A program made the position numbers and the translations under genes. Under the pieces are notes generated by a model. The model was not told the origin of the DNA. It saw only the letters and a program-made list of their open reading frames with translations, and ran no database searches. Shown piece by piece: positions 1 to 64,000 of a stretch of DNA of 64,000 nucleotides. How positions within the stretch are numbered: position 1 is the stretch's first letter; each line of letters starts with the position of its first letter. Source of the stretch: a phage. The stretch is taken from NCBI GenBank assembly GCA_008273105.1, contig GCA_008273105.1_4080.1. One strand, 5' to 3'.

Positions 1-251
1 ATTAATCTTCAAATCAGACCCAGGGCAATATGAAATGTATTCTGCTTTGTAATGAAAGTCATTATCATCAAAGTACTCCGCGTAGATTTGATTACCTCTA
101 CCATTAGTAAATGCTAGTCTTCCTTTAGATGAACTGAACTCATCGTATTGAAACATACCACCAAAAGGTTTAGGACTTCTGAACTCCTTTGCAATGCGAT
201 AGATATTTTCTGCAAATTCTAAAACACCATCGTAATCATATTCTATAGTAA
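1..251 (-). CDS. hypothetical protein, 3' end beyond window
   Basis: Minus-strand frame open from ATG at 251 to window edge (MITIEYDYDGVLEF...); abuts stop of next gene. Confidence 0.4.
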
Positions 252-728
252 TCATAAACCATTTTTCTCCAGGTACTCAATAATACAATCGACATTGTTC
301 AGGTCCAAGTAGAAATGATCACTATCGGAATTTAGTTCATTTTTAAGGGCTGTTAAAATCACTGAACTGAAAACAATCCTCTCTGGATACACAGTACTGT
401 ACTGGAAGAACTCTTCTTCAGTGTTAATTACAATCGTATCAAATGCTTCATTTATAAGAAGATGATTGTAGTATTTGAAATTATCTGAACTTGGGAAATG
501 GTATGAAATAAAATCACCACTTGGTACTTCATCAAGCACTCTAATACTACAAGTTGATTCATCTGAGCTATAGAGTAACCCATCCATAAAGGAAAGATAT
601 CCATTTCGTTTAATAACTTTATTTTTATCAATTAAAAAATCTTCAGTAACATTCGCAAGGAATTTATAAACCCTGATAATGTCTTTTGCTATTTTTTGTG
701 CATTGCTAAATGATAGGTCTTTGGACAT
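252..728 (-). CDS. family-A small protein (F-Q core motif)
   Basis: ORF 158 aa; core motif TEEEFFQYSTVY then FYLD, shared with array paralogs. Confidence 0.6.
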   Translation of the reverse strand: MSKDLSFSNAQKIAKDIIRVYKFLANVTEDFLIDKNKVIKRNGYLSFMDGLLYSSDESTCSIRVLDEVPSGDFISYHFPSSDNFKYYNHLLINEAFDTIVINTEEEFFQYSTVYPERIVFSSVILTALKNELNSDSDHFYLDLNNVDCIIEYLEKNGL

Positions 729-787
729 TGTGTTATAACCCTTTACAATTAATATAAAGGGATTATATCACAAAAAATCGGTGGGTG

Positions 788-1372
788 TCAAGAGTGGTTG
801 CGAAGTTCTACCATTTCTTCCCAAACTAATTGGTAATCTTCTAAGTCCAGATAGAAGTCTTCATTCCAGTGCACATGAAAGTACTTATACATGAATAGAA
901 CTCCTAAATCGTATGCAGGAAACAATAATGATAGTTGAAAGTAGTATTCCTGATTTAAAACTATATCAATAAACTCTAATGTACGTATGCCACCTTTCGA
1001 TGAACGTATCTCAATGTGTGAGGTATCCTTCATACTGTAACACATGAAACCACCTCTAAATTCTGGATCATATTCACATTCGAACTGCTCACTGTTGTTA
1101 TAGAAATCTCTCCCACTTTCTTGATCTTTCGGTCTACGTACTGATACATGAATATTTTTATCACGGTACATTGAACGATTTAGTATTTTCAAACATTTGA
1201 ACTTATCTTCTTTAATGAACTTGATAATATCAATTATATCTTGTGCTGTACTGATAGCTGATTCGAATGTATCCAACTTAAGATGATTATATTGGGTTCC
1301 AGAGTTCATTTTTTTATCTAACATATAAACCTCATAATTCATACATTTTTGATTTGAACTGCATATGACCAC
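788..1372 (-). CDS. family-A small protein (divergent)
   Basis: ORF 194 aa; motif QEYYFQLSLLF ... FYLDLEDY; true start may be internal (about 1324). Confidence 0.5.
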   Translation of the reverse strand: MVICSSNQKCMNYEVYMLDKKMNSGTQYNHLKLDTFESAISTAQDIIDIIKFIKEDKFKCLKILNRSMYRDKNIHVSVRRPKDQESGRDFYNNSEQFECEYDPEFRGGFMCYSMKDTSHIEIRSSKGGIRTLEFIDIVLNQEYYFQLSLLFPAYDLGVLFMYKYFHVHWNEDFYLDLEDYQLVWEEMVELRNHS

Positions 1373-1667
1373 CTATTTCACATGGATAACAATTCATAAT
1401 TTTGTTCAATAGAATCTGGTATTTTTTAATAACTTCTATATCAATTTTTATATTACTATTAAAAACTAATGATTCTTGAAATAATTCCCCCTCGTCAAGT
1501 GAAGTAAAATCATTTATCTTCAAGGGTATATTGTTGCATCGCAAGGAGAATGTATTTTCATCACGAATTAAAGTATAGAAATCATTATGTTTTTTATTAT
1601 AATCAAATTTAACAAGTAGTAGTTTAATATGAGTAGCGTACATTACTTTAACTAATTCAGTCTTCAT
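1332..1667 (-). CDS. family-A small protein
   Basis: ORF 111 aa; motif DEGELFQESLVFN. Confidence 0.55.
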   Translation of the reverse strand: MKTELVKVMYATHIKLLLVKFDYNKKHNDFYTLIRDENTFSLRCNNIPLKINDFTSLDEGELFQESLVFNSNIKIDIEVIKKYQILLNKIMNCYPCEIGGHMQFKSKMYEL

Positions 1668-2019
1668 AACGGAATAAAATTCTCCTGTACTGCTCCGGTC
1701 CAGTACTCAATCTCTTCACTGGATAATTATCAAAGATTCTTTTCATTTCTTTCTGGATTAAACATAAGAAATCAAAGTTACAATCGTACTTATTATCCCA
1801 TACTAAACTTTCTTGGAATAACTCATCCTCTTGCATTAGTGTAGTGTCAATTACATCTTCACGAACATAGCTATATACTTCATAGCTCTTGAAGCCATCT
1901 TCTGATAATTCTAATTCATATGCAGCCATATCAAACATATCATCATGGTTTGTCTTCAATGATATTAAACAAGTAACTAATTTTTTAGTTGTATAGTATG
2001 TAATACTTAATGTGTTCAT
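1657..2019 (-). CDS. family-A small protein
   Basis: ORF 120 aa; motif QEDELFQESLVWD. Confidence 0.55.
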   Translation of the reverse strand: MNTLSITYYTTKKLVTCLISLKTNHDDMFDMAAYELELSEDGFKSYEVYSYVREDVIDTTLMQEDELFQESLVWDNKYDCNFDFLCLIQKEMKRIFDNYPVKRLSTGPEQYRRILFRYED

Positions 2020-2024
2020 TTGTT

Positions 2025-2627
2025 TTATACCTCAGTATAAAGCTTACAATAGCTTTCATCAAAATCACAAACACTTCTCAAGTACTGACACAGGTCATTG
2101 AAAATATTTACATTTGATATATATACATTATCAAATTCTGTTCGTTGAAAGAATGTATGCATAGAATTTGTAATATATCGCATTGCATCTTCACGTCCCA
2201 TAGTTATATCATTTGTGAACATTGCATCTTCATCAGTACTGATGTGTTCTATTTTAAATGATTTCATAAATGGAATACTCTTTCCTAGGGCATAACCATC
2301 ACCATATGATGCTTCTACTGCACCTTTAGAATAAAGGAATTGATATAAGTCCGAATCACGATTATAAAAAGTACGACATACGGAGGAACATAATTTATTA
2401 TCTATATGAAATAAAAATCTTTTAGCATTTTTGTCTAATACTATTCGCAATGCATCACTCTCTAGAAATATATCACCATCAAGCATAAATGAGAACTGTA
2501 CTAATGCTTTTTCTAAATCCGCTCGTTTGTGATAAATCATTTCCTGCATATATATAATATCATTTGCTAATTTCTTAAAAAACAAATGCACATCTGCACT
2601 ACAACATTTATTTGCATTTATTGACAT
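2025..2627 (-). CDS. hypothetical protein
   Basis: ORF 200 aa, co-oriented and abutting neighbours; no clear family motif. Confidence 0.5.
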   Translation of the reverse strand: MSINANKCCSADVHLFFKKLANDIIYMQEMIYHKRADLEKALVQFSFMLDGDIFLESDALRIVLDKNAKRFLFHIDNKLCSSVCRTFYNRDSDLYQFLYSKGAVEASYGDGYALGKSIPFMKSFKIEHISTDEDAMFTNDITMGREDAMRYITNSMHTFFQRTEFDNVYISNVNIFNDLCQYLRSVCDFDESYCKLYTEV

Positions 2628-3178
2628 AATAGTTCCTTATACATATGATGTACTTTACAAATCTCATTATAGTATTTCATATCAATGTCATTTGTATTAA
2701 AAACGGAAACAGACAATACTGCTAACTTATCAATTAAGTAATTATTATCGGCGTACTCTTTTAACTTATTGAACATATAGATGCATTTTATACTTAATTC
2801 ATCATGCAACACACTGTTCTGAAAAATATTCTCTTCAGTATTAGGAGATAAGTAATCTTCAATTATATACGATAAACTACTATCGCAATCTTTATAGATT
2901 GAAATTGATGGATGTAATGTGTCATACATTACACTAAACAGATCACCGTCATATGTGGATATTAAACTATTATTGGAAACAGTAGGATGATAATATTTCA
3001 GTACTGAAAACTTTGAACAATCAGTGCAGTAAAAATGATCCATCCCTCGACGACTTTCGTATGAGAATAGTTTACTTGTATATTCAATCCCTTTGGTGCG
3101 ACGGATTGTTTCATGCATTTCTGCACATTGCATTAAAATTACCATACGTTCAAACGCAATATCTAAATCATCGTACAT
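2618..3178 (-). CDS. family-A small protein
   Basis: ORF 186 aa; motif TEENIFQNSVLHD. Confidence 0.55.
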   Translation of the reverse strand: MYDDLDIAFERMVILMQCAEMHETIRRTKGIEYTSKLFSYESRRGMDHFYCTDCSKFSVLKYYHPTVSNNSLISTYDGDLFSVMYDTLHPSISIYKDCDSSLSYIIEDYLSPNTEENIFQNSVLHDELSIKCIYMFNKLKEYADNNYLIDKLAVLSVSVFNTNDIDMKYYNEICKVHHMYKELLCQ

Positions 3179-3359
3179 AACGGATATCCTTCTTCAGCGA
3201 ATTAATATATTCCAAAATAACTTGTTCCTGATATTGGGTTCCCAAGTACATCAGGACTTTCAACTCTTTGAATTCAGTACTATATGAGTCTGTTTGCATC
3301 ATTCTAGTAGAATATATATTGAATAGTTTAGCAATGTCATTTTGGTCTATTATTTTCAT
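3168..3359 (-). CDS. family-B small protein (LGTxxQ core)
   Basis: ORF 63 aa; motif YLGTQYQEQVI; outlying member of the 16-24 kb array family. Confidence 0.5.
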   Translation of the reverse strand: MKIIDQNDIAKLFNIYSTRMMQTDSYSTEFKELKVLMYLGTQYQEQVILEYINSLKKDIRYVR

Positions 3360-3558
3360 ATATTCTCTTCTGGATTAGTTCCTGTAAGTGCTGAATATAA
3401 CCCTTCATTGCAACATCCTGTTTGTTAGAGCCAACGAAGAACAAGAGCTTAAAGTCATGGTAATCCATTTTTGGTTTAGTAGTGAACCATATGTCCCACA
3501 CTGCACTCACAGTTCTCATGTATTCAATTCGATTAAATGTTTTTGAATACTTCATCAA
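3337..3558 (-). CDS. family-B-like small protein
   Basis: ORF 73 aa; degenerate motif FVGSNKQDVAM. Confidence 0.45.
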   Translation of the reverse strand: MMKYSKTFNRIEYMRTVSAVWDIWFTTKPKMDYHDFKLLFFVGSNKQDVAMKGYIQHLQELIQKRIYENNRPK

Positions 3559-4069
3559 TGTTAATCGCCAATAAGTTAATATACAAATTACTGTTAAATG
3601 CTATCTGCAATTCCATATAGAACTGAATGATAGCATAGTCAGGGTCAGTACACGATAGTTGAAAACACTGTTCGTCAAATGCATTGTAATTGTACTTAGG
3701 GATGTGAATTTCACGCTTCAAATCAGGTTGACCCCACTTCATCGCATACACACCAATGTTATTGTTCTTTTTCCTTTTCTTAAATGTTAATTGTTGAATA
3801 TTTCCAGCGTTGTCTAGGAAAATAGTATTATTCGACACAGGTGCACCAATAGAAAACAATGATGTATCAATTACGTGTGTCTCACGCACCTCACACTTCT
3901 GGAATGCCCCAGTACCCTGTAATACATAATGAAAATTGTACTTCTCATTAACAACAGTACTAGGATCGATTAAACCAGTACTGCATTTTTTGAGTACTGG
4001 TACAATGGTGCGAATCTTTTTTGATAAATCTTGTAATGCATCAAAGTCATTGATGTTAACTTTCATCAC
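3533..4069 (-). CDS. hypothetical protein (weak family-A signal)
   Basis: ORF 178 aa; GTGAFQKCEV weak match to F-Q core. Confidence 0.5.
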   Translation of the reverse strand: MMKVNINDFDALQDLSKKIRTIVPVLKKCSTGLIDPSTVVNEKYNFHYVLQGTGAFQKCEVRETHVIDTSLFSIGAPVSNNTIFLDNAGNIQQLTFKKRKKNNNIGVYAMKWGQPDLKREIHIPKYNYNAFDEQCFQLSCTDPDYAIIQFYMELQIAFNSNLYINLLAINIDEVFKNI

Positions 4070-4515
4070 TCGAATGTAGCCTCTTCAGTAGTAACAAAAT
4101 TGGTTAGTGTATCCAGTTCAGCAGTGTCAAGATAAAATACATCTAGTACAGATTTCTGATATATTACACTGAATGTGCATAGATTGTCAAGTGTCCCTTG
4201 TTCATAAACAGTACTACCCTGGAAGTACCCTTCTTCAGTACTCAGGGATAAAATATCTGAAATTTTAAAAGATTCTTCAGTTGCATGTCTTTCTATATTA
4301 ACTATATTGCCGTTTCGGTTCAATGAAATATAATCGTATGCTAACTCAATTAGACTATAATTATCCGCATTAGTGTCAAATAAAGCGACAATTTTTCGTC
4401 TCAATCTCTCATCGTGATCATGGTTTTCATCAGCTAAGTATTCAGGATTTTCTTTGAAGAATTTAACGACGCGTAGAATATCATTTGCTTTCTTGATTGC
4501 ACTTTCGTAACTCAT
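4066..4515 (-). CDS. family-A small protein
   Basis: ORF 149 aa; motif STEEGYFQGSTVY ... FYLD; ATGA overlap with neighbour. Confidence 0.55.
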   Translation of the reverse strand: MSYESAIKKANDILRVVKFFKENPEYLADENHDHDERLRRKIVALFDTNADNYSLIELAYDYISLNRNGNIVNIERHATEESFKISDILSLSTEEGYFQGSTVYEQGTLDNLCTFSVIYQKSVLDVFYLDTAELDTLTNFVTTEEATFE

Positions 4516-4820
4516 AATAATTCAACCACTCCATCTCTAAAGTACATATAACTACCACCATTGGATACTGTGAATTCTATTGTCCCCAATAATATATTAT
4601 ATTTTTTTATTTCACATGTAGTACTTGTAGTGTAAGGCTCACCATCTCCTAAGTACATTGACATATGACATAGAACTTTTCTACCAGCATATTTCTCTTC
4701 AAACGATTGTTCAAAACTATGCATAATTTGATTTAAAGCTGAAATGTAATTAATAAAGTCAGGTATTTCTGTCAATGAATTATAAACCGTACAAAGTGAA
4801 TCAAATTCATTTTTAGTCAT
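4512..4820 (-). CDS. hypothetical protein
   Basis: ORF 102 aa in operon context; no family motif. Confidence 0.45.
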   Translation of the reverse strand: MTKNEFDSLCTVYNSLTEIPDFINYISALNQIMHSFEQSFEEKYAGRKVLCHMSMYLGDGEPYTTSTTCEIKKYNILLGTIEFTVSNGGSYMYFRDGVVELL

Positions 4821-5134
4821 TATATTTCTATCTCAATGTAATCCTGTGTGATTAAATAATCCCAATGATACTTCACCTGCTTTTGTAATTCAATTAACGT
4901 AAAGAAGTTGATCGATTTATCCCATACGAGAGATTCCTGGAAAATAAATGATTCATGTTCATCGTAATAATCACACTCTAAAAAATCAGGTATATATTCA
5001 CTATCGTGAATGTATTCAACAAACGAACTAGCTTGGCATTTCTTTACTACTAGTAATAATGAATTATCATGATCAAACAGATACAATAAACTAATTTCAC
5101 CAGGGACGTACTGAACACTGAATAAGTTTTTCAT
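4820..5134 (-). CDS. family-A small protein
   Basis: ORF 104 aa; motif ESFIFQESLVWD. Confidence 0.55.
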   Translation of the reverse strand: MKNLFSVQYVPGEISLLYLFDHDNSLLLVVKKCQASSFVEYIHDSEYIPDFLECDYYDEHESFIFQESLVWDKSINFFTLIELQKQVKYHWDYLITQDYIEIEI

Positions 5135-5583
5135 TCTATACCTTCTGGATCTTTACGAAGTTCTTCGAAATCCAAATAAAATCGAGGACAGTTAACACTC
5201 TTTAAGTACCACATAATAACTAATGCTTCAAGTACTTCATCATCGTAAACAGTACTGTTTTGGAAGTAATACTCTTCACTATCCCACGGACCTTCCAGTA
5301 CTTCATAATTCAAAATTAATGGTTTTTTGCGATTAATAAAACGAATGCTACCATTTTCAACATAACTAATAAATTCTGCATCTCTATTGTATTCAGAAAA
5401 CGATATAGGACTATTGGAATTCAACCCAAGAATAACCCTTACACCAACGGAGTTATTATACATTTCATCCTTGTAGTAGTTGCCGTTCTCGGCTTTGTAC
5501 ACTTCTTTGAACTTTCCTGCCTTTATATCGTCAAAGTATCCATGTAGTTCTTTTGCTTTTTCAAGAGCACTTTGTAATGACAT
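5131..5583 (-). CDS. family-A1 protein (MSLQSAL... GPWDSEEYYFQ subfamily)
   Basis: ORF 150 aa; N-term MSLQSALEKAK, core GPWDSEEYYFQNSTVY, MWYLKS, FYLDF. Confidence 0.65.
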   Translation of the reverse strand: MSLQSALEKAKELHGYFDDIKAGKFKEVYKAENGNYYKDEMYNNSVGVRVILGLNSNSPISFSEYNRDAEFISYVENGSIRFINRKKPLILNYEVLEGPWDSEEYYFQNSTVYDDEVLEALVIMWYLKSVNCPRFYLDFEELRKDPEGIE

Positions 5584-6049
5584 TACCTTCTCCTACAGTA
5601 TTCTCTACATATTCATAATCAAAATAGAAACTACTGGAGTCAATACTTTTGAAATACCACATAATTACAATAACATCTAATTCTTCTTCATTGTACAACG
5701 TACTATTCTGGAAGTAATATTCTTCACTATCCCACGGTCCTTCCAGTACTGAATAAGGAATGATAGTGTCATCAGCATCACTATCTGTGTTGTAGATGGT
5801 AATATCTTCATTACGGCAATAACTAATGTACTGATTGTACATATGATATTCACAGTTATCACTGTCACCAGTATCAGTGTGCAGTACTAATGTTTCTGCA
5901 CATATCTCGGACTCGTCATAATCGTCACGGTCTTTTACAAAAAATTCAGTATCAGATGTTTTATATACACCTGGTACTGAACCTTCCTGTACCATAATCA
6001 TGTACTCATGAATCTTCTTTGCTTCTTTCAATGCACTTTGTAATGACAT
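5561..6049 (-). CDS. family-A1 protein
   Basis: ORF 162 aa; MSLQSALKEAK ... GPWDSEEYYFQNSTLY ... MWYFKS. Confidence 0.65.
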   Translation of the reverse strand: MSLQSALKEAKKIHEYMIMVQEGSVPGVYKTSDTEFFVKDRDDYDESEICAETLVLHTDTGDSDNCEYHMYNQYISYCRNEDITIYNTDSDADDTIIPYSVLEGPWDSEEYYFQNSTLYNEEELDVIVIMWYFKSIDSSSFYFDYEYVENTVGEGNVITKCS

Positions 6050-6492
6050 TACAAATCCCCTGTACTTAAATATTCACATGCTCCCCAGTCAAGAAAGAAT
6101 GGTTCAAAATTCAATTCCTTAAAGTACCACAACACAACCAAGGAATCAAGAATTTCTTGGTTAAAAATGAGACTCTGTTGGAAGTAATACTCTTCAGAAC
6201 CCCACGGGCCATCAAGTACCCCGAAGTCAACAGGTGTATTTGTTGTGTCAAAAGTAATCTTAGTACCTGGAATATATACAAAAAAATTAGTATATTGACT
6301 ACATGAAGAGTACTGTATAGTATTGTCTTTATCCTGTCCCATAAGTAAAATATCATCAGAGTATGTCTTTATACCTGATAGATAATACTCATTACCAAAT
6401 GCACTTACTTTATCACCATAGAAACCACTTTTTATGTTATCGTGGAAGTGATGTATTCTGTGTGCTAGTTCAAGTGCACTTGCTAAACTCAT
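6049..6492 (-). CDS. family-A1 protein
   Basis: ORF 147 aa; MSLASALELAH ... GPWGSEEYYFQQSLIF ... LWYFKE. Confidence 0.65.
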   Translation of the reverse strand: MSLASALELAHRIHHFHDNIKSGFYGDKVSAFGNEYYLSGIKTYSDDILLMGQDKDNTIQYSSCSQYTNFFVYIPGTKITFDTTNTPVDFGVLDGPWGSEEYYFQQSLIFNQEILDSLVVLWYFKELNFEPFFLDWGACEYLSTGDL

Positions 6493-6959
6493 ATATCCTC
6501 TTTAATAACTCGTAGTAGATCCAAGTCCAAATAGAAGCTAGGACAATCTGTATTATTAAAGTACCACAGAATGACAAGCTTGTCAAGTACATCTTCCTCG
6601 TAGATAGTATTCTGCTGGAAGTAGTACTCTTCACTTCCCCAGTCATTATCCAGTACTGAATACGGAAGATGTTTCTCTGCTGCACCAGATATAATGTCAG
6701 AATCTTGTATTAAAATATCAGCATCACGACAGAAGTACATGTAATTATCTTCCAAATTAACATCACACCCATTGAGTGTTGTTTCAGAAGAATCTAAGTT
6801 TTCTTCATACATGTGAATGTACTCACTACTGTCATCGTATCTCATTCGACAATATGATTTACCTTCCTTGAATAGATATCCATTAAGACAATTTGCTACA
6901 ATTTCTTTGCTGCATAAATCAATTAACTTCGCAATCTCTAATGCTCTTTCTAAACTCAT
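6489..6959 (-). CDS. family-A1 protein
   Basis: ORF 156 aa; MSLERALEIAK ... DWGSEEYYFQQNTIY ... LWYFNN. Confidence 0.65.
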   Translation of the reverse strand: MSLERALEIAKLIDLCSKEIVANCLNGYLFKEGKSYCRMRYDDSSEYIHMYEENLDSSETTLNGCDVNLEDNYMYFCRDADILIQDSDIISGAAEKHLPYSVLDNDWGSEEYYFQQNTIYEEDVLDKLVILWYFNNTDCPSFYLDLDLLRVIKEDI

Positions 6960-6960
6960 T

Positions 6961-7452
6961 TCAACCCCTGTTAATACCGTTATCTACAGTTTTCTTTACG
7001 TATTTGTAATCGAAATAGAAGTTCCCAGAACCAATACTTTTAAAGTACCACATAATTATAATAACATCAAGTACTTCATTATCATATACAGTACTTTGTT
7101 GGAAGTAATACTCTTCACTATCCCACGGACCTTCCAGTACTTCACTCGGAATTATAATGTCATTGGAATCGCTGTCAGTACTGTTGATGGTATCTGTATC
7201 ATTAATATAGACCATGTACTCATTATGCATATTAATGAAGCATTCATAATCATTAGGGTCGGTATCTAGTATGCACGTTTCTGTATCCAGTACGCACGTT
7301 TCTGTATCTGAGCAGTCATTATAAAGGAGGTTATCCGGTACATAATATTGAGTACTTGTGTCTTTGAAAACACCGTAAACTGAACCTTCTTTTGCCATAT
7401 TCATGTACTCATGAATCTTCTTTGCTTTTTCCAATGAACTCTGTAATGTCAT
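6961..7452 (-). CDS. family-A1 protein
   Basis: ORF 163 aa; MTLQSSLEKAK ... GPWDSEEYYFQQSTVY ... MWYFKS. Confidence 0.65.
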   Translation of the reverse strand: MTLQSSLEKAKKIHEYMNMAKEGSVYGVFKDTSTQYYVPDNLLYNDCSDTETCVLDTETCILDTDPNDYECFINMHNEYMVYINDTDTINSTDSDSNDIIIPSEVLEGPWDSEEYYFQQSTVYDNEVLDVIIIMWYFKSIGSGNFYFDYKYVKKTVDNGINRG

Positions 7453-7461
7453 TTTATAATC

Positions 7462-7821
7462 TCATATATTGAAATAATAATTATTCGTTCTTGATGGGGA
7501 TGGATTAAATACGTTTTCTTTTTCAAATCTCTTCATTTCATTTTGCAAAGAAACCATTTCTTCAAATGTACAGGAGTACTTATTCTTATCAAACACTAAT
7601 GCAGCCTGAAATAGTTCACCATCGTCCAGTACTGTATAATCTATAAGACTCTCAGATTCATAGTCATAGTCGTCATGTGATACATGAATAAATTTAAAAC
7701 AAGAATCTTTGTAATGCATATATAAACTCAACTCATGTTCCGAGTCGCCCTTAATAAGATTACAGCACAAGTCCCATCCTTTAGGTAACTTATAATAGTA
7801 CATAGAATAATCATATGTCAT
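7462..7821 (-). CDS. family-A small protein
   Basis: ORF 119 aa; motif DDGELFQAALVFD. Confidence 0.55.
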   Translation of the reverse strand: MTYDYSMYYYKLPKGWDLCCNLIKGDSEHELSLYMHYKDSCFKFIHVSHDDYDYESESLIDYTVLDDGELFQAALVFDKNKYSCTFEEMVSLQNEMKRFEKENVFNPSPSRTNNYYFNI

Positions 7822-8174: not shown

Positions 8175-8545
8175 CAGTACTCAACCTCTACATAAATAGA
8201 TTCAGGAAACTTAGTCATATAATCTTCTGGATAGTTCTGCATTACTTTGATCATTTCTGCCTGTGTAGCACGGACGTATTCAATTGGTGCTCCTGGTAAA
8301 TTCCAGACAGTACTTTCCTGAAAGAATTCCTCTTCTGACAGTACTGTCAGATTTACAAAATCATTACGGTAATTTTTTGAATCATCATATGTGAAGATTT
8401 TAAAAGACCCATTTTCATATAGTACAAGAACAAAATGGGAGAATTTTTGTAATGCACCACCAAGGCTTTCCACGACCGCATGATTCAGTGTACAGATGAC
8501 CTCTTTTTTCCTCATACCGAATTGAATTCTAATTTCTTTTTTCAT
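8174..8545 (-). CDS. family-A small protein
   Basis: ORF 123 aa; motif SEEEFFQESTVWN. Confidence 0.55.
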   Translation of the reverse strand: MKKEIRIQFGMRKKEVICTLNHAVVESLGGALQKFSHFVLVLYENGSFKIFTYDDSKNYRNDFVNLTVLSEEEFFQESTVWNLPGAPIEYVRATQAEMIKVMQNYPEDYMTKFPESIYVEVEY

Positions 8546-11498: not shown

Positions 11499-11499
11499 A

Positions 11500-56739: not shown

Positions 56740-56745
56740 TTTAAT

Positions 56746-56776
56746 GCCAGTACAGAGTACTGGCTTTCTTATTTGT
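56746..56776 (+). terminator. intrinsic terminator (cassette boundary)
   Basis: gccagtac aga gtactggc + T-run. Confidence 0.65.
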
Positions 56777-56810
56777 ATTAAATATAGTATAATGAATAAA
56801 GGAGGAATTT
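56777..56810 (+). promoter_or_regulatory. cassette promoter -10 and SD
   Basis: attaaatatagTATAATgaataAAGGAGG. Confidence 0.5.
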
Positions 56811-58001
56811 ATGTTACCTTTTGTAAGAATGATGAATTATGGGAATATTGTCCCAGTACCACTTCAAATTAAGAAAATAATCCCAACTGATTTAGATGTT
56901 GTTGTTCTGTATACGGATGGTCAACTATATGCACGTGGGAATAATAGTTTTGGGAAATTTGGTAGGGGAAACAACACTGCATTAAAATCATGGACATTAA
57001 TTAGAGAAAACGTTAACGATTGCTGGGTTACACAAGGAACTTTATTAGTAAAAGATAATGACTCAAATTATTTTTATTGTGGATATGGTGATCATGTTGG
57101 TTTACCAACTAGTACTACTACGTTTTTAAGTTATAACCAATATATTGAAAATTTGTACACGCAAAGTTCAAGTACTTCAATTAAACAGATGTATGGAGGT
57201 ACTACGTGGTTTACGGTATTAATGGATAATAATACAATATGGAGTACTGGTTGGAGTGGGGCTAGACAATTCGCTGATGGTACTGGTAGTACTCAACAAA
57301 TAACAGATGGATCATTTGTAAAAGCTGTCACGCCTAATGTTGATATTGCACAAATACTGTCAACAAATAACTGTGTAATGTTTTTTGATACACAAAATAA
57401 TTTATATATTGGTGGTGGTACGTCAGGTATAAGTACCAGTACCACATGGACACCATTTAATGAATATACTTTATATAAACCAAGTACAACATACACAAAA
57501 ACGTTACAATACACTGGATGCTCAAGTGGTGCAGTCAGTGCTTTGGTTGAGAATCCAAGTACTGGTGCACGTCAGTTTCTAGTTGGTGGTTTAGCGAGTA
57601 ATGGTGCATGGGGTAACAATACCACAACCAGTTCGGCAATTGCTGTATTAGGGAGCAATAGTACGACATTACCAACTGGAACTTTGTATTCAATTCATAC
57701 AGGATACCCAACACAATCTAGTATACTAGTTACGAGTACTGGTGTATATGCAACTGGTTTAAATGCGAGTAGTTATGCTGGTTCGTTGGGTGTTGGTTCT
57801 AATGTTACTATTGGTAGATTTACTATATGTCCAATGCCAGCAGAAATATCATATTCTATGTATGATAAAATAAAAATATATCGCGGTTCGTATCGTACTT
57901 TTCTAACTGCTGATATGAAAAATATATATTCAACCGGAACGTATGATGATGGTGGTCCTAGTACAAATAGATATGTTCTGGATACACCTAGACAATTGTA
58001 A
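56811..58001 (+). CDS. MLPF-leader repeat protein 7 (RCC1-like, more divergent)
   Basis: MLPFVRMMNYGN leader; YARGNNSFGKFGRG and Gly/Thr-rich repeats. Confidence 0.7.
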   Translation: MLPFVRMMNYGNIVPVPLQIKKIIPTDLDVVVLYTDGQLYARGNNSFGKFGRGNNTALKSWTLIRENVNDCWVTQGTLLVKDNDSNYFYCGYGDHVGLPTSTTTFLSYNQYIENLYTQSSSTSIKQMYGGTTWFTVLMDNNTIWSTGWSGARQFADGTGSTQQITDGSFVKAVTPNVDIAQILSTNNCVMFFDTQNNLYIGGGTSGISTSTTWTPFNEYTLYKPSTTYTKTLQYTGCSSGAVSALVENPSTGARQFLVGGLASNGAWGNNTTTSSAIAVLGSNSTTLPTGTLYSIHTGYPTQSSILVTSTGVYATGLNASSYAGSLGVGSNVTIGRFTICPMPAEISYSMYDKIKIYRGSYRTFLTADMKNIYSTGTYDDGGPSTNRYVLDTPRQL

Positions 58002-58008
58002 TAATTTA

Positions 58009-58039
58009 GCCAGTACAAAGTACTGGCTTTCTTATTTGT
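58009..58039 (+). terminator. intrinsic terminator (cassette boundary)
   Basis: gccagtac aaa gtactggc + tttcttatttg. Confidence 0.65.
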
Positions 58040-58072
58040 ATTAAATATAGTATAATGAATAAAGGAGGAAGT
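58040..58072 (+). promoter_or_regulatory. cassette promoter -10 and SD
   Basis: attaaatatagTATAATgaataAAGGAGG. Confidence 0.5.
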
Positions 58073-59206
58073 ATGTTACCTTTTGGAAGAATGGTTAAGT
58101 ACGGAAATAAAAGACCATCTAATAATATCAAAAAGATTTCATGCACAACCAATAACAGTGTTTTGGTGCTCACCGAAAGTGGAGATTTGTATGGTTTTGG
58201 ATTCAATTCAGGTGGTGAACTTGGCACTGGTGCAACAACTAGTGTTACTTCAGTTATTCAAATTGACACTGGAGTTGATGATGTATGGGGTGGCAGTCTA
58301 TGTGCAATGTACAGAAAAGGCGATGAATTCTTTGGTAGCGGGAACGGTTCTTATTATGGTTCAAGTACTGTTAACTCAACCACATTTGTAAATGTAACAC
58401 ACATATTCCAAGATATAGATATTCTTAATATTAAGAAAATTAAAATGACAACAGGTTTGTTTATATTAATGCAAAACGGCAACTTATATGGATGTGGGGT
58501 AAACACCAATTGTCAATTTGGTACTGGTGAGGCAGGGAATTTTCGTTATCCTATAGCTACATTAACACAAACGGATGTTGTTGATTTTGATATTTTAGGA
58601 AACGCTAGTATAATATTAAAGACCGATGGGTACATGTACAGTGCGGGTGATAATGGTCGTGGACAACTTGGTAGTGCTGCCGCAACCACAGTTCTGGTAT
58701 ATACACAAATTAGTAAATTTCCAAATGTAACCAATTTGAATCTGTTCGGATGCACACAATCCTGTTCATTATTCAAAGATAGTGATGGTAAAACGTGGTT
58801 GAGTGGTAATAGTTATGGTATTGATTACCCAGTAGTAGCTACAACATTATTCAGTAAAGAAGCACCAGTACCTGAAGGTACATTTAGATTTATCCACACG
58901 AGATCAGGGGCAAATTCACCAGTAATATGTACACCCACTGGGTATTATGTTGCTGGTACTAACCCTTATGGTGCATATGGTATAGGTACAAATGTAACTC
59001 TGACTGCATACACTAGAATGGATTCAATGGATAATTACATATCAAATTATAATGATGTTCCTGTGTTTGATGGTTGTTTCTATGGGACATATTTTGCAGT
59101 CGGAGAACGTCTGTTTGGTGCAGGTAATGGAAATTTAGGTAATGTTCCAGGATATACTGGAACACAACGTAACTATGTAGAAATTAATTATAAAAATAAA
59201 CCTTAA
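58073..59206 (+). CDS. MLPF-leader RCC1-like beta-propeller repeat protein 8
   Basis: MLPFGRMVKYGN leader; repeats YGFGFNSGGELGTG, YGCGVNTNCQFGTG, YSAGDNGRGQLG. Confidence 0.75.
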   Translation: MLPFGRMVKYGNKRPSNNIKKISCTTNNSVLVLTESGDLYGFGFNSGGELGTGATTSVTSVIQIDTGVDDVWGGSLCAMYRKGDEFFGSGNGSYYGSSTVNSTTFVNVTHIFQDIDILNIKKIKMTTGLFILMQNGNLYGCGVNTNCQFGTGEAGNFRYPIATLTQTDVVDFDILGNASIILKTDGYMYSAGDNGRGQLGSAAATTVLVYTQISKFPNVTNLNLFGCTQSCSLFKDSDGKTWLSGNSYGIDYPVVATTLFSKEAPVPEGTFRFIHTRSGANSPVICTPTGYYVAGTNPYGAYGIGTNVTLTAYTRMDSMDNYISNYNDVPVFDGCFYGTYFAVGERLFGAGNGNLGNVPGYTGTQRNYVEINYKNKP

Positions 59207-59212
59207 TACAAT

Positions 59213-59243
59213 GCCAGTACTTGATACTGGCTTTTCTTTTTGG
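59213..59243 (+). terminator. intrinsic terminator (cassette boundary)
   Basis: gccagtacttgatactggc + ttttctttttg. Confidence 0.65.
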
Positions 59244-59276
59244 TTAAATATAGTATAATGAATAAAGGAGGGAATT
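59244..59276 (+). promoter_or_regulatory. cassette promoter -10 and SD
   Basis: gttaaatatagTATAATgaataAAGGAGGG. Confidence 0.5.
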
Positions 59277-60014
59277 ATGTTACCTTTTGCAAGAATGGTT
59301 AAGTTCGGGAATAAAATTGAATATAAGCCACATGGTGAACAATTAATCACGACAATAGGAACAACACAATTTACAGTTCCTGCTGGCGTTACCGAAATAT
59401 CAGTATGTGTTATTTCGCCGGGTGGTCAACGTGGTGCTGGTGGCGGCTTATCGTGGCGTAATAATATTCCGGTTTCTGGTGGTGAGTACTTAAGTGTTTC
59501 TCTTACACATCCCAACACTACTACAGCAGTTGAAAACGGTTTATATCGTGGAACTGAAAAACTATGTGTTAGCTTCACTGGTGAATATAGGGTTGGTGGA
59601 CTAGGTGGGAAAGCTGCTAACGCTATTAATGATGGTGGTGGTAATGGGGGCAACGCTGGTGTAAGTGGTGGTGCAGTCATTGGTGGTGGTGCTGGTGGCT
59701 ACACTGGTAAAGGTGGTAACGGAGATGCAATCACTGGTGAAAATGGTGCTGGCGGCGGCGGTGGTGGTGGTGCATTCTATAATACCTCGTTCATTGGTAC
59801 GGGTGGTGGTACTGGTATCATTGTTCAAGGTGCTAATGGTATTGGCGGTAGATACGATGGTTCATATAATGGTGGTGCTGGTAGTGGTGGTGCTGGTAAG
59901 ATGTATGGTGGTGGTGGTAGTATATGGGATAATTTTTCTTATACGGCTGCTGGTGGTGGTGCTGTGCGAATAATATGGGGACGTGGGAGATATTATCCTA
60001 ACAATTCAGTCTAA
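59277..60014 (+). CDS. MLPF-leader glycine-rich protein (non-RCC1 cargo)
   Basis: Same leader MLPFARMVKFGN fused to a Gly-rich body (GGGNGGNAGVSGG, GAGGGGGGGAF, GGAGSGGAG) unrelated to the propeller paralogs. Confidence 0.7.
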   Translation: MLPFARMVKFGNKIEYKPHGEQLITTIGTTQFTVPAGVTEISVCVISPGGQRGAGGGLSWRNNIPVSGGEYLSVSLTHPNTTTAVENGLYRGTEKLCVSFTGEYRVGGLGGKAANAINDGGGNGGNAGVSGGAVIGGGAGGYTGKGGNGDAITGENGAGGGGGGGAFYNTSFIGTGGGTGIIVQGANGIGGRYDGSYNGGAGSGGAGKMYGGGGSIWDNFSYTAAGGGAVRIIWGRGRYYPNNSV

Positions 60015-60021
60015 AATATAG

Positions 60022-60052
60022 GCCAGTACTTGATACTGGCTTTCTTATTTGT
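60022..60052 (+). terminator. intrinsic terminator (cassette boundary)
   Basis: gccagtacttgatactggc + tttcttatttg. Confidence 0.65.
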
Positions 60053-60085
60053 ATTAAATATAGTATAATGAATAAGGAGGGAATT
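60053..60085 (+). promoter_or_regulatory. cassette promoter -10 and SD
   Basis: attaaatatagTATAATgaatAAGGAGGG. Confidence 0.5.
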
Positions 60086-61228
60086 ATGTTACCTTTTGGA
60101 AGAATGGTTAAGTACGGGAATATTGCACCAGTTCCGGTAGTTCCTACAATAAAAGATTTTAAGATTGGCTTTTCGCATGAAGTGTTATTGGACAGTGCAG
60201 GTGATGCATGGGGTATTGGATACAATACAGATGGGCAGTTAGGCTTTTTGGATGCAAATACCAATTCACTAGGTGCGTGGTCTAAGATATATACTGATGT
60301 TCGATTAATTGGAGTTACTGCTAGATATACAGTGGTAGTTACTAATAATAATAGAATCCTTTACGCAGGAAATAACTTAATTTCTAGTACTACTACTCTT
60401 GGGTGGACCGATATAACTGCCAGTATGGGTCCGGTTGCGGTGGATAGCATCGATGCATTATATTGCACAGATGGTATGATGCATATTAAAACTTCAGATG
60501 GTTCTTTATATGCATATGGTCGTAACATGAACGCAAACAGTGGTGTTACTGGTGGTGTTATTAGTGTTGCAACTAAGGTTAATTTGCCTTCTGCTGTAAA
60601 TGACATGCGATATACGTTTAGTTATGGTTCAGTACTATGTCGATTGGATACGACTTCTATATACGCATGGGGACGAAACACAAATGGTGAATTAGGCCAG
60701 GGTAATACAACAGCTATCGTTACACCAAAACTATTGTCTGGTGCTTCTATTGCAATGGGTACTTCGTATAATGCTACTGCAATTGTTTCTGGTTCTGCAT
60801 CGTTAGTTACGTGTGGTGGTCAGAACAGTGGTCAGTTGGGTAATGGTATTACTACTGATGGTAATGTTTACGTATATGCTGCTAGAACATACCCTGGCGA
60901 TCTTAATACTATAAGAAGTCCAGTGGATTGTAGTACAACGTACACCTCTGCATTTATGAGTCCAGATGGTATATATTACACTGGTGCTAACCGAAGCATG
61001 TTTGGTGGTATTAGTGGTGCTGCTACCGTTGGTGTATATACTAAATGTAGTGATTTACCAATAACATATTCTAATATAATTCAGTGGGGTAGTGGTACTA
61101 TTGGTGGTGCTATATGTAGTAGTACAGAGTTATACCAATGTGGCATCGGTCGATACATTGCTGGAGATGGTGCGAGCACAACCAGGTATGGATTTAGGAA
61201 GACCCCATTACCTTGGGATGTTTATTGA
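60086..61228 (+). CDS. MLPF-leader RCC1-like beta-propeller repeat protein 10
   Basis: MLPFGRMVKYGN leader; repeats WGIGYNTDGQLG, YAYGRNMNANSG, WGRNTNGELGQG, CGGQNSGQLGNG. Confidence 0.75.
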   Translation: MLPFGRMVKYGNIAPVPVVPTIKDFKIGFSHEVLLDSAGDAWGIGYNTDGQLGFLDANTNSLGAWSKIYTDVRLIGVTARYTVVVTNNNRILYAGNNLISSTTTLGWTDITASMGPVAVDSIDALYCTDGMMHIKTSDGSLYAYGRNMNANSGVTGGVISVATKVNLPSAVNDMRYTFSYGSVLCRLDTTSIYAWGRNTNGELGQGNTTAIVTPKLLSGASIAMGTSYNATAIVSGSASLVTCGGQNSGQLGNGITTDGNVYVYAARTYPGDLNTIRSPVDCSTTYTSAFMSPDGIYYTGANRSMFGGISGAATVGVYTKCSDLPITYSNIIQWGSGTIGGAICSSTELYQCGIGRYIAGDGASTTRYGFRKTPLPWDVY

Positions 61229-61234
61229 AATAAT

Positions 61235-61268
61235 GCCAGTACTCAAGTACTGGCATTTCTTTTTGATT
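61235..61268 (+). terminator. intrinsic terminator (cassette boundary)
   Basis: gccagtac tcaa gtactggc + atttctttttg. Confidence 0.65.
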
Positions 61269-61299
61269 AAATATAGTATAATGAATAAAGGAGGGAAGT
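61269..61299 (+). promoter_or_regulatory. cassette promoter -10 and SD
   Basis: attaaatatagTATAATgaataAAGGAGGG. Confidence 0.5.
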
Positions 61300-62475
61300 A
61301 TGTTACCTTTTGCAAGAATGGTTAAGTATGGGAATATTAAACCTGCACCTTCGGGTGTATTAAAGATTAGTACATCTGTAACACATATGGGTATGTTATT
61401 TGATAGTGGTAACTTATATCTACGTGGGCGTGGTGCATATTATATGCTAGGAAATAATAGTACTGAGTATGTACAAAATGGGTGGGTACTTTGTCCATAT
61501 AAAGTTTCTAATGTTTGGTGTTTATTCGCAGGGACAATTATACTTACGACTGACGGAGAATTTTACTTAGCAGGGCAAATGAACTATCTCGGTGTATCTG
61601 CATCACCTGTTCCTGGATGGACTAATATTACATCTATATTGTCTACAATTCCAAGCCTTACTACAGTTCAAGATATAGCTTCTACCGAAACTACCGCATT
61701 TAATGGTTCTTTATTAATTCTGTTAAGTGATGGTAACTTATATGGGATAGGCCGTAATGCTGGGGGTGAATTGGGTGTTACTGGAATACAATCAACACCT
61801 ATTTTGATTAACACGGGTGTTACTTTAATCGCAGGAACACAGTCGGGTGGTGCTTTCCATTTTGTAAAAAATGGACAATATTACAGATGTGGTAATAATG
61901 CAAGTTATAACCTAGGTACAAGTTCATCTAAACTATCCACATTTACAGTAAGTACTGATATATCAGGAACAGTTATTGGTATTTCATGTACTACTGAAAC
62001 GACTTCAGTACTTACATCGAATAATGGTAATATTACAGTATATACGGCTGGAAAAAACACTGATTATTGTTTAGGAATAGGGTATGGAGACACTACGATT
62101 ATCATGAGTCCATTTAGTGCTACTCCCGCAATTAGTGGGATTATACCAGATGCTGCTTCGATGAATAACCACAGTTTGAATTATTTTATAATGGCAATGA
62201 CACAGAATGGTAAACTTTATACATGTGGTAGTGGTGTTCCTCTGGGTTGGCCTCCTTCTAGTGCATCAGAAAGATCTTCTTACCACCAAGTACAATATGA
62301 GGATATGGATATTGCTCCAGATGTTAATGCATTTGCAGTACAAGGTGGTTCTGGTGTGTTATACGCGTTAGTGGGGACTAATGAGGTGTACTGGTGTGGT
62401 AATGGGTCTATGTTTCAGGAACAGAGTCCGGGTACACAACAAGTTAAAATGAAGAAAATGATTTTACCAGAATAG
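61300..62475 (+). CDS. MLPF-leader RCC1-like beta-propeller repeat protein 11
   Basis: MLPFARMVKYGN leader; repeats YGIGRNAGGELG, RCGNNASYNLG. Confidence 0.75.
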   Translation: MLPFARMVKYGNIKPAPSGVLKISTSVTHMGMLFDSGNLYLRGRGAYYMLGNNSTEYVQNGWVLCPYKVSNVWCLFAGTIILTTDGEFYLAGQMNYLGVSASPVPGWTNITSILSTIPSLTTVQDIASTETTAFNGSLLILLSDGNLYGIGRNAGGELGVTGIQSTPILINTGVTLIAGTQSGGAFHFVKNGQYYRCGNNASYNLGTSSSKLSTFTVSTDISGTVIGISCTTETTSVLTSNNGNITVYTAGKNTDYCLGIGYGDTTIIMSPFSATPAISGIIPDAASMNNHSLNYFIMAMTQNGKLYTCGSGVPLGWPPSSASERSSYHQVQYEDMDIAPDVNAFAVQGGSGVLYALVGTNEVYWCGNGSMFQEQSPGTQQVKMKKMILPE

Positions 62476-62483
62476 GAGTGAAT

Positions 62484-63626
62484 ATGTTACCTTTTGCAAG
62501 AATGGTTAAGTACGGGAATATTATAATCCCCCTTGATATAAAAAAAGTTGATTTAACAATAAATGGTTGTATAATACTTACAAGTGATGGTAAATTATAT
62601 GCAAGTGGGACTCAATCAGCAGGTCAATTTGGATTAGGAAATAGAACAACACTTACAGTACGTACATTAATAGCCGAAAATGTGGTTAATTTTTGGTTTA
62701 GTCAGTCTGGATTAACTATTTTAAAAAATGATAGTTCATATTGGTTTAGTGGAGCAGCATATGCATATGGAGATAGTGGTAATGTTTTTATTAACATTGA
62801 TAGTTTAATCAAAGACAAATTTGACAATGCGAGCGAAATATATGTTGCACGTGATCATGCAACTGTTATTGTAAACGCCGATGGTTCAGTTTGGGTTTTA
62901 GGTTCTAATTTATATGGTATGATTGGGTTAGCAAGTACTACAACATACGCCCCTACATGGACACAAAATACAAACCTTACTGGTGTTTCTAAAATGCAAT
63001 TTGGTCATCTGAACGCATGTGGAATAAGATCGAATGGCGACGTTGTTGCGTGGGGTGAGAACAGATTCAACTGCTTCACAACTGTGGGCGGTACTGGTTA
63101 CCTGACACCAAGAGTAGTTAAGTCAAATGTGATTGATTTTTATTTAACTGCAACATCTTGTTTTATGTGGAGTGATGCTACTTCAGTTTATTTTAGTGGC
63201 TATACTGGGGACACTGGATTATTAAATTCTGCGGCTGGTAGTACCTTTCAGTCATACAATATATACAGTGTAGCTCAACCGGAAACATATGTAAGTTCAG
63301 AGTTTCGTTTTATAAAGCATACAAACTACAACTATGGTAATGCTGTTAACTTACCAGTATACGTTAAATTTAGAATTAATGGTGAAGTTTATAGTAGTGG
63401 ATATAACTTAAGTAGTAGTTTGGGGGTAAATTCCGTTTCCACCAGCGTAAAAAATACAACTTTAGTTCCAGGTGCATCAAAAATGACATCGTGGGTGGCT
63501 GGTGATACTAATGTTAAATTAGCTACTATTGATGGTAGTTTATATGGTGCAGGTAACGTACAATATATTTTAGATAAACCAAGTCAAGAAATATATCCCA
63601 CATATCAAAAATTAAATATAATATAA
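62484..63626 (+). CDS. MLPF-leader RCC1-like beta-propeller repeat protein 12
   Basis: Start MLPFARMVKYGN 8 nt after stop of gene 11 (TAGGAG overlap); no cassette, likely co-transcribed. Confidence 0.75.
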   Translation: MLPFARMVKYGNIIIPLDIKKVDLTINGCIILTSDGKLYASGTQSAGQFGLGNRTTLTVRTLIAENVVNFWFSQSGLTILKNDSSYWFSGAAYAYGDSGNVFINIDSLIKDKFDNASEIYVARDHATVIVNADGSVWVLGSNLYGMIGLASTTTYAPTWTQNTNLTGVSKMQFGHLNACGIRSNGDVVAWGENRFNCFTTVGGTGYLTPRVVKSNVIDFYLTATSCFMWSDATSVYFSGYTGDTGLLNSAAGSTFQSYNIYSVAQPETYVSSEFRFIKHTNYNYGNAVNLPVYVKFRINGEVYSSGYNLSSSLGVNSVSTSVKNTTLVPGASKMTSWVAGDTNVKLATIDGSLYGAGNVQYILDKPSQEIYPTYQKLNII

Positions 63627-63636
63627 AGGAGGGAAT

Positions 63637-64000
63637 ATGTTACCTTTTGGAAGAATGTTAAAGTACGGAAATATTAAACCAACTCTTCCTGAAATAAAGA
63701 AATTGGATGGTAGTCAATTACATGTCGGATTACTTTATAGTACAGGGAATATGTACATGCGTGGTTCTGGTTCGAACTATAAATTAGGTACAGGGGATGC
63801 TAGTGATGTATTCGGTGGTTGGGTACATGTACCCTATGAAGTTGATGATTTTTGGGCGTGTGTATCCGGTACATTAATAAAGACTGTTGATAATAAATTA
63901 TATTGTGCAGGTCTATACATGGGTGGATATTTTGGGGCTAGTGGTTCATATGTTAACTGGACTGAAGTAACTTCATTATTTGTAGGTATTGACGTGTCGC
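63637..64000 (+). CDS. MLPF-leader RCC1-like repeat protein 13 (3' end beyond window)
   Basis: Start MLPFGRMLKYGN 10 nt after stop of gene 12 with AAGGAGGG SD; frame open to window end. Confidence 0.7.
   Translation, partial: MLPFGRMLKYGNIKPTLPEIKKLDGSQLHVGLLYSTGNMYMRGSGSNYKLGTGDASDVFGGWVHVPYEVDDFWACVSGTLIKTVDNKLYCAGLYMGGYFGASGSYVNWTEVTSLFVGIDVS

Follow-up and report, generated by a model that had tools for sequence, protein, structure and literature searches.

AGTACT, a hyper-abundant palindrome conserved across RaK2-like enterobacterial jumbo phages, as a possible recognition site of a symmetric DNA-binding protein

Among the short words that genomes keep at high density, the closest to the one described here is HIP1 (GCGATCGC), the highly iterated palindrome of cyanobacteria, whose function is unsettled (PMC5861425, PMC4390886) and for which a periodicity of 10-90 kb has been reported. 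Here we analyse the palindrome AGTACT in 64,000 nucleotides of the phage contig GCA_008273105.1_4080.1 (GenBank assembly GCA_008273105.1), the whole of which we call the window. The window derives from an Asteriusvirus, a 121Q/PBECO4/G17-like jumbo phage of Escherichia coli, with 98% identity to G17. Like HIP1, AGTACT is a hyper-abundant, short and perfect palindrome that lies inside and between genes in all frames, and like HIP1 it is conserved by selection and not replenished by repair bias. It differs from HIP1 in being a 6-mer of phage genomes rather than an 8-mer of cellular chromosomes, in its degree of enrichment (8-13-fold, against 15-300-fold for HIP1) and in its fixed positions at promoters and terminators, whereas no gene-level role has been found for HIP1. 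Three hallmarks of a HIP-type sequence, namely a many-fold genome-wide excess, occurrence inside and between open reading frames (ORFs) in all frames and conservation above background, were found for AGTACT, which is a phage counterpart of HIP1. Neither AGTACT nor the ACT-free operon described below is mentioned in the literature we searched on Asteriusvirus, RaK2, GAP32, CBB and PA5oct, and the hyper-abundance of AGTACT in these phages appears to be undescribed so far.

Several words read by proteins offer further comparisons. The sites of SlmA (SBS, GTGAGTACTCAC), Noc (NBS) and MatP (matS) are palindromes of 12-14 bp that are bound by a dimeric protein and scattered over the replicon as a spatial or identity signal, as we propose for AGTACT. 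AGTACT is even the core of the SlmA site (PMC3020112), although the flanks that SlmA requires are disfavoured in the phage, and all three kinds of site number tens per chromosome of 4-5 Mb, against about 900 AGTACT per 0.35 Mb. The Dam site GATC, with SeqA and MutH, is likewise a genome-wide short palindrome that also occurs in particular promoters and is clustered in special regions. GATC is read by a methyltransferase as well as by binding proteins and, unlike AGTACT, is a 4-mer near its chance frequency. Chi and the DUS/USS words resemble AGTACT as short words kept dense by selection that a DNA-processing machine must meet often, but they are asymmetric and read on one strand, whereas AGTACT is symmetric and has symmetric flanks. 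TF1 of phage SPO1 is an abundant phage protein that prefers phage DNA over host DNA and represses the early promoters of the terminal redundancy, where its preferred sites are located. TF1 distinguishes phage DNA by its hydroxymethyluracil, while a reader of AGTACT would use the density of a motif in ordinary DNA; we identified no homologue of TF1/HU.

The window contains 259 copies of AGTACT, against 20.1 ± 4.9 (maximum 31) in dinucleotide-preserving shuffles, and the word ranks first among all 4096 hexamers despite a G+C content of 35%. The first-pass annotation had noted by eye a strong over-representation in coding and intergenic DNA, and the counts show it to be stronger than was claimed. 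AGTACT is also the sole strongly enriched palindrome of the window, at 12.6 times its expectation, with the runner-up at 2.4 times. Other palindromes are avoided: GGTACC and CGTACG are absent despite 672 occurrences of GTAC, and low counts were found for ACCGGT (1 observed, 7 expected), CAGCTG (1 and 6.7), TCTAGA (3 and 14) and AAGCTT (6 and 16). Such avoidance is as expected for unmodified phage DNA, and the contrast that had been drawn between AGTACT and the usual avoidance of restriction sites was correct.

The least credible explanation of this excess is that it has no function and arises as a side effect of codon or dipeptide usage, of mutation or repair bias, or of the spread of repeated promoter-terminator cassettes. 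Many intergenic AGTACT do lie within repeated cassette sequences, and an order-4 Markov model, the type of comparison that had been suggested for this word, predicts 220 of the 259 sites. This model is circular, because its sub-words AGTAC and GTACT are themselves inflated by AGTACT, and it does not refute the excess. All three frames are used by the coding sites (72/36/61), and shuffling synonymous codons within genes yielded 54 ± 6 sites against 168 observed. A threefold excess thus stays after correction for codon usage, although a ratio near 1 after correction for composition and codon usage had been named as the refuting result, and we reject a codon or dipeptide artefact. Further results that bear on a functionless word are given with the comparisons between genomes below.

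The distribution of AGTACT within the window is uneven. Its density is 2.4 times higher between genes than within them (9.7/kb against 4.0/kb). Along the window it amounts to 4.4/kb in positions 1-9033, 6.6/kb in 16546-19124, 6.4/kb in 24366-44384, 6.8/kb in 44385-49500 and 2.6/kb in 49501-64000, with no site at all in 9034-16545 and 19125-24365. The enrichment that had been annotated for positions 1-64000 therefore holds for the window overall but is not uniform; the two AGTACT-free blocks, and the strand-specific absence of the half-site from the first of them, had been overlooked. Positions 24366-44384 represent one copy of a direct terminal repeat of about 20 kb, since the physical ends of the G17 record map to exactly these two positions, and 44384 is the physical terminus of the genome. 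In fEgEco12, a terminal repeat of 20,993 bp has been shown experimentally (PMC13070987). On its minus strand, the repeat in the window carries about 60 small early genes with individual sigma70-type promoters. It contains 129 AGTACT sites, which amount to 6.4/kb overall, 11.4/kb between genes and 4.1/kb within genes.

We compared these counts with those in related phages. In OR844650.1, a complete relative of 352 kb, AGTACT is the commonest hexamer, with 919 copies against about 100 expected. Within genes it is evenly spread at about 2.6/kb, and it peaks just past stop codons and 40-60 nt ahead of start codons, with a dip over ribosome-binding sites. Spacing between sites is slightly more regular than random (mean 451 bp, coefficient of variation 0.87, with a largest gap of 2.1 kb where about 2.9 kb would be expected), and paired sites show only a weak excess at a spacing of 20 bp. 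A complete RaK2-like Klebsiella phage contains 945 AGTACT where 80 are expected, again the first-ranked hexamer. RaK2 and GAP32 have 83 (6.9 expected) and 181 (8.7 expected) in 30 kb, respectively, and BF-like and CBB-like contigs, with a tail-sheath identity of 66-67%, have 44 and 51 where 6 are expected. A group at 48% tail-sheath identity shows a weak excess (14 against 4.9), and loci at 47% identity or less are all at expectation and contain no comparable palindrome. In positions 100001-135000 of Pseudomonas phage PA5oct, AGTACT is depleted about 10-fold (1 against 10.2). The other palindrome considered in PA5oct, CTGCAG (15 against 3.2), was rejected as its excess is modest, scattered and probably codon-driven. 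The AGTACT excess is a trait of the enterobacterial RaK2-like jumbo-phage clade, where it extends over Asteriusvirus, Alcyoneusvirus, Mimasvirus and the CBB and BF groups, and has a sharp boundary. In a 50-kb sample of E. coli K-12 we counted three AGTACT (0.06/kb), so that the density in phage DNA (2.6-6.4/kb) is 40-100 times that of the host.

To assess selection on individual sites, we used alignments of diverged lineages in which other hexamers within the same alignments served as controls. Relative to fEgEco12, 77% of the coding AGTACT sites were intact, compared to 46% of the control hexamers, as were 14 of 14 intergenic sites, compared to 63%. Relative to A4, the corresponding values were 79% against 51% for coding sites and 18 of 18 against 63% for intergenic sites. 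These alignments indicate purifying selection on AGTACT that is specific to position. None of the 18 single-mismatch neighbour words is depleted, which rules out an origin by repair conversion; very-short-patch-type repair and mutation bias are rejected on the same ground. Where sites had diverged, AGTACA and TGTACT were the commonest alternates (18/53), the outer A and T were the most variable positions and G2 and C5 the least. A functionless by-product also fails to account for the conservation above background of sites in unique coding DNA, for the near-equal counts (919 and 945) in genera that share no nucleotide similarity, and for the lack of an excess in relatives outside the clade. We regard this explanation as refuted.

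The first-pass annotation had placed AGTACT in promoters, just upstream of the -35 and of the -10 element, and both positions were recovered. In promoter class I, AGTACTTGCA is fused to the -35 element in 17 copies on the sense strand of the terminal repeat. In an example on the minus strand at 25231-25286 (aaaaAGTACTTGCA ... TATAAT), AGTACT is joined directly to a -35 element of the TTGCA type and starts 27 nt upstream of the -10 element. In promoter class II, with 11 copies in the terminal repeat, the arrangement is AGTACT-N-TATAAT. An example on the minus strand at 33211-33309 reads TTGACA-spacer-gatAGTACTgTATAAT, where the motif at about -19 to -14 abuts the -10 element and another AGTACT shortly precedes the -35 element. 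Expressed as offsets from AGTACT to TATAAT, offset 27 accounts for 17 and offset 7 for 11 of the 43 TATAAT hexamers in the terminal repeat, and antisense controls show neither peak there. In GAP32, offsets 27-29 were found at 13 and offset 7 at 10 of 45 TATAAT hexamers, and across the whole genomes of the E. coli and Klebsiella phages, too, no offsets are more frequent than 7 and 27. The geometry expected of an operator at sigma70 promoters, with offsets of 7 and 27-29 from TATAAT, is thus found in Asteriusvirus, GAP32 and the RaK2-like phage. For the clade's late and middle promoter motifs (TATAAATA and TGAAACG, respectively; taken from PMC5259590), no association with AGTACT was seen.

AGTACT is also found in terminators. 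Stems of the form GCCAGTACT..TACTGGC follow genes at 49.5-63.6 kb, where conserved intrinsic-terminator hairpins with AGTACT in the stem (GCCAGTACTtgaTACTGGC followed by a T-run) lie on the plus strand between 50683 and 61258, starting at 50683, 51930, 56743, 58007, 59210, 60020 and 61231. They follow at least seven genes of a tandem array of RCC1-repeat paralogues on the plus strand at 49551-63626, which comprises about 11 genes for proteins of 245-433 amino acids (aa). Of three proteins from this array that were scanned for domains, two contain RCC1-repeat (beta-propeller) domains and one had no match. The terminator stems that had been annotated are therefore real for this array, but in several of the gccAGTACT cases (32736, 36364, 38703 and 41245) the word belongs to a promoter of the opposite strand, next to its -10 element.

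The sequence around the core is itself symmetric. Flanking preferences in the window are weak, with C before the core at 47% and G after it at 42% of sites, and CAGTACTG is present in 52 copies. Each half-site prefers T, T, C as its flank, TTC being enriched about five-fold, and long symmetric extensions of AGTACT are 2-3 times above chance frequency. The 12-bp palindromes that had been reported around AGTACT are dominated by TTCAGTACTGAA, with nine copies in the window. Two of these form a pair at 42808-42872, each with another AGTACT 13 bp away, and the others start at 2997, 27706, 39918, 41071, 41368, 43329 and 50054. TTCAGTACTGAA is the commonest 12-mer extension in two genera, with 16 copies in the E. 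coli phage and 31 in the Klebsiella phage.

A function for AGTACT is supported because the sites are under purifying selection, are conserved across genera and share exact positions in promoters. A functional role had been proposed in the first-pass annotation, as a protein-binding site, a DNA modification target or structural promoter context, and of these we favour the first over the second. Promoter context as the sole role is not tenable, as the two promoter positions account for only about 5% of the sites and the majority fall within genes. Our leading, if still tentative, reading is that AGTACT is the recognition site of a symmetric and probably phage-encoded DNA-binding protein that is conserved in the RaK2-like clade. 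A symmetric reader is favoured because the TTCAGTACTGAA consensus is symmetric, AGTACA is tolerated and there is no C-to-T decay. Judged from the sequences, the graded tolerance of the site, with a nearly invariant G2 and C5 and with AGTACA kept at full density, is typical of a binding site. AGTACT would then be the core of a site, with TTCAGTACTGAA as its optimum, for a symmetric and probably dimeric factor that binds double-stranded DNA and is conserved across RaK2-like enterobacterial jumbo phages, which most likely encode it themselves. At early sigma70-type promoters the site overlaps either the -35 or the -10 hexamer at its upstream edge, and occupancy of the site would control early transcription, in the simplest form by shut-off. 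The roughly 900 further sites, spread evenly in genes, would give the unmodified phage genome 40-100 times the binding-site density of the host, and the same factor could coat, organise or identify phage DNA selectively.

Several observations weigh against this binding factor. Scans of about 50 proteins from the window against Pfam and PHROGs found no DNA-binding domain; the Pfam matches were limited to a kinase-like protein, a GNAT acetyltransferase, RCC1 repeats and domains of unknown function (DUFs). About 95% of the AGTACT sites are away from promoters, and their role is conjectural. Binding alone also gives no reason for the ban on ACT on one strand of one operon, which is discussed below. 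Finally, every enriched phage infects Enterobacterales, which leaves room for a reader encoded by the host, and the 6-bp palindrome is a classic target of a Type II-like methyltransferase. The last two points each have an explanation of their own.

If the reader were a host protein conserved in Enterobacterales, which the phage would titrate or activate, for example to block cell division, the obvious candidate would be SlmA with its AGTACT-core site. The depletion of AGTACT in PA5oct, whose host is a Pseudomonas, agrees with such a host factor. In each half of its 12-mer (GTRAGY; PMC3020112), SlmA depends strongly on G and T in the first two positions and on a purine in the third, and phage half-sites instead prefer T, T, C. 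Flanks of the GT-purine type are found 19 times where base composition predicts 47 in one genome, and 23 times where it predicts 56 in the other, and both the full GT.AGTACT.AC site and GAGTACTC are absent from the window. We therefore reject SlmA as the reader, as the flanks that it requires are disfavoured and AGTACT does not belong to the SlmA sites, and we consider a host protein in general very unlikely.

The main rival to a binding protein, which we consider possible but distinctly less probable, is that an orphan DNA methyltransferase encoded by the phage acts on AGTACT and that the methylation serves as an epigenetic mark, like Dam/GATC or methylated HIP1. Such a mark could time early promoters by the difference between full and newly replicated methylation states, direct repair or separate phage from host DNA, and it would shield about 900 sites of the ScaI/Eco255I type from restriction. 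AGTACT is a perfect palindrome with this specificity and has the symmetric 4-8-bp form of Type II-like methyltransferase targets. The clade encodes conserved orphan N6-adenine and C5-cytosine methyltransferases (PMC7247149, PMC5259590, PMC3622015), which also counts against the binding factor, and a C5 enzyme of 286 aa was found in a relative. As the phage otherwise avoids palindromes, 900 unprotected sites of known specificity would be risky, and HIP1 provides the precedent of an iterated palindrome tied to orphan methyltransferases (PMC4390886).

Other observations fit methylation less well. AGTACA is held at full density in the ACT-free operon, while methyltransferases rarely accept near-cognate sites, and the symmetric preferences reach 3-6 bp past the core. 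C5-to-T and G2-to-A are the rarest changes at AGTACT (3/53), which argues against 5-methylcytosine at C5 but not against N6-adenine or N4-cytosine methylation. In addition, digestion of fEgEco12 DNA proceeds normally with all ten enzymes of a set that includes the CpG-sensitive ClaI, NruI and SmaI and lacks ScaI (PMC13070987). Binding and methylation could coexist, by analogy with Dam and SeqA, and the two models are not exclusive.

The first AGTACT-free block of the window is the ACT-free operon, about 25 small paralogous genes on the minus strand at 9034-16545, whose sense strand contains no ACT over 7512 nt. The plus strand accordingly lacks AGT, while ACT on the plus strand is normal (194). 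ACT is absent from the sense strand in every frame and in the spacers, where about 160 would be expected at the rate of the neighbouring block (190 in 8965 nt; P ~ 1e-69). In a scan of all 2- to 5-mers over a whole genome, this ACT gap (8.2 kb, log10 P -65) had no competitor. AGTAC words are kept at their usual density (5.8/kb), but 41 of the 44 read AGTACA, in all frames. An E-x-[YLF]-F-Q motif is common to the operon proteins, which are paralogues for which no structural relatives could be detected. At the 3' end of the operon, no significant RNA structure that could act as a terminator was found.

The ACT-free zone is conserved in G17, PBECO4, ECO103, fEgEco12 and A4, including genes for proteins at 53% and 43% identity. 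In the relatives' loci it covers about 10001-17000 of L001 and L002, 12563-20856 of L011 and 11951-18932 of L012. Its upstream edge varies between lineages, and the constraint on ACT therefore acts gene by gene. An assembly or base-calling artefact is rejected, as the AGT-free strand is found in six independent isolates (Germany, Korea, Turkey, Finland, Ireland). Neither the complete RaK2-like genome nor the first 75 kb of GAP32, both with an AGTACT excess, has any trinucleotide-free zone, and the ban on ACT is thus an addition specific to Asteriusvirus. ACT/AGT is the exact half-site of AGTACT. Since the chance of such a coincidence is about 1 in 32, this suggests a mechanistic link between the ban and the palindrome.

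The second AGTACT-free block, and the only other one, is an array of about 25 tightly packed genes for proteins of about 70 aa on the minus strand at 19125-24365, immediately inside the terminal repeat. It shows no enrichment of GTAC (14 against 16 expected). Eleven of the 14 GTAC read TGTACT within a recurring GCTGTACTG word, one per paralogue. The array shows the same pattern in fEgEco12 and A4, and in the loci L011 and L012 it covers about 4600-10000 and 5850-10000, respectively.

By analogy, the sole known precedent for the ACT-free pattern would be resistance to a trinucleotide-specific mRNA interferase, as in the ACA-less (MazF) and GCU-less (MqsR) messages (PMC12151602). Like these messages, the operon lacks a trinucleotide on its sense strand in all frames, entirely through synonymous choices. 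It differs from them in being a 7.5-kb block of about 25 phage genes and not a single gene, and in that the banned word is the half-site of the genome's own iterated palindrome. Avoidance of ChpB or MazF is rejected, as ACA is the main Thr codon of the operon and ChpB cuts ACA, ACG and ACU. A DarT-type modification of single-stranded DNA was also rejected as the cause of the ban, as DarT2 reads TNTC and DarT1 is without a defined motif. We regard the ACT-free operon as unexplained.

Two further explanations concern AGTACT as a whole. The T4 endoribonuclease RegB, which acts at GGAG, is the model for the first, in which AGUACU or ACU is an RNA signal that is cut or bound by a sequence-specific endoribonuclease turning over early transcripts, while the ACU-free operon must survive. 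As a palindrome, AGTACT is present in the transcripts of both directions. Its density is highest in the early region, and an operon without ACU in all frames and in its untranslated parts has the known signature of mRNA-interferase resistance. The best-conserved sites, however, precede the transcription starts (-39 to -34 and -19 to -14), the flank preferences are strand-symmetric as for duplex DNA, and late genes also carry AGTACT. No ACU-specific RNase is documented in the literature that we searched, and no RNase domain was found among the window proteins. Taken together, we find an RNA signal quite improbable.

Priming of replication is the second explanation, and we consider it improbable as well. 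Bacterial and phage primases such as T7, T4 and DnaG read a template trinucleotide with a central pyrimidine, a form that ACT fits. ACT would be the essential 3' trinucleotide of the template 5'-AGTACT-3', giving the primer pppGUACU; the word would be enriched because a 6-mer would otherwise be too rare for Okazaki starts on a 350-kb genome, and its palindromic form would serve both strands. The mean spacing of 451 bp, the largest gap of 2.1 kb and the slightly more regular than random arrangement are consistent with this, and a half-site read on one strand would tie the palindrome to the ACT-free strand. The phages of the clade also encode their own primase (PMC7247149). Left unexplained are the exact promoter positions, the terminator stems and the symmetric TTC...GAA flanks. 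The loss of priming on one strand over 7.5 kb should not be lethal, which gives no reason for an absolute ban. Moreover, we know of no primase that needs six bases.

A further and rather unlikely extension of the DNA-binding reading would connect AGTACT with the ACT-free operon. The density of the palindrome would be a genome-identity tag through which a reader of AGT/ACT separates phage from host DNA, and the half-site would also be read on a single strand of DNA or RNA by a related activity, from which one Asteriusvirus operon has to be fully exempt. If so, a dimer on the palindrome would let the phage machinery tell phage DNA from host DNA by density alone, and this discrimination would serve transcription control, protection or compaction. 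It would be a motif-based alternative to base modification for distinguishing self from host, with a built-in set of immune genes.

Additional features were observed in and around the terminal repeat. A non-coding stretch of 1.4 kb (43281-44657) spans the genome terminus and is dense in AGTACT, mostly as gattcAGTACTga, together with short direct repeats. Within it, positions 44000-44384 at the physical terminus combine short direct repeats (ctagacggctaaacggctagat-like) with an AGTACT cluster, and these may be related to end recognition or packaging. In many early cassettes, the 5' untranslated region (e.g., 27298-27381 and 33785-33876) contains a conserved hairpin rich in G+C, GGGGAGAA...TTCTCCCC, which lies after the promoter and ahead of the ribosome-binding site. 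As no T-run follows, we do not read this hairpin as a terminator, and it is likely a 5' stabiliser or processing element.

The E. coli Chi sequence (GCTGGTGG) occurs 14 times in the window, where about 0.4 would be expected, with nine copies in the terminal repeat. Chi sites are located on the minus strand at 27233, 28640, 31578, 32528, 33038, 37082, 43783 and 63439 and on the plus strand at 37144, 43795, 49785, 59436, 59691 and 59949. Seven of those in the terminal repeat are oriented for RecBCD entry at the 24366 end and two for entry at 44384, where the nearest Chi is 590 bp from the terminus. This placement suggests end protection. A megablast search with positions 30000-36000 of the window matched five records named as Campylobacter phages and single records of an Acinetobacter and an Erwinia phage. 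We had not expected such matches, which may stem from records that are mislabelled or contaminated.

RaK2-group giant phages are in development for therapy, although over 80% of their genes await characterisation and the organisation and regulation of their 350-kb genomes of ordinary, unmodified DNA are still obscure. AGTACT, as the commonest word of these genomes, kept across genera without nucleotide similarity and placed in early promoters, provides an experimental handle that could lead to a central regulator or to an epigenetic system. The ACT-free operon, with no ACT where about 160 are expected, points to an undiscovered nuclease, modifier or primase that reads a trinucleotide, in the phage or in its E. 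coli host. HIP1 has remained a puzzle for decades, and its phage counterpart offers a system much more tractable than cyanobacteria.

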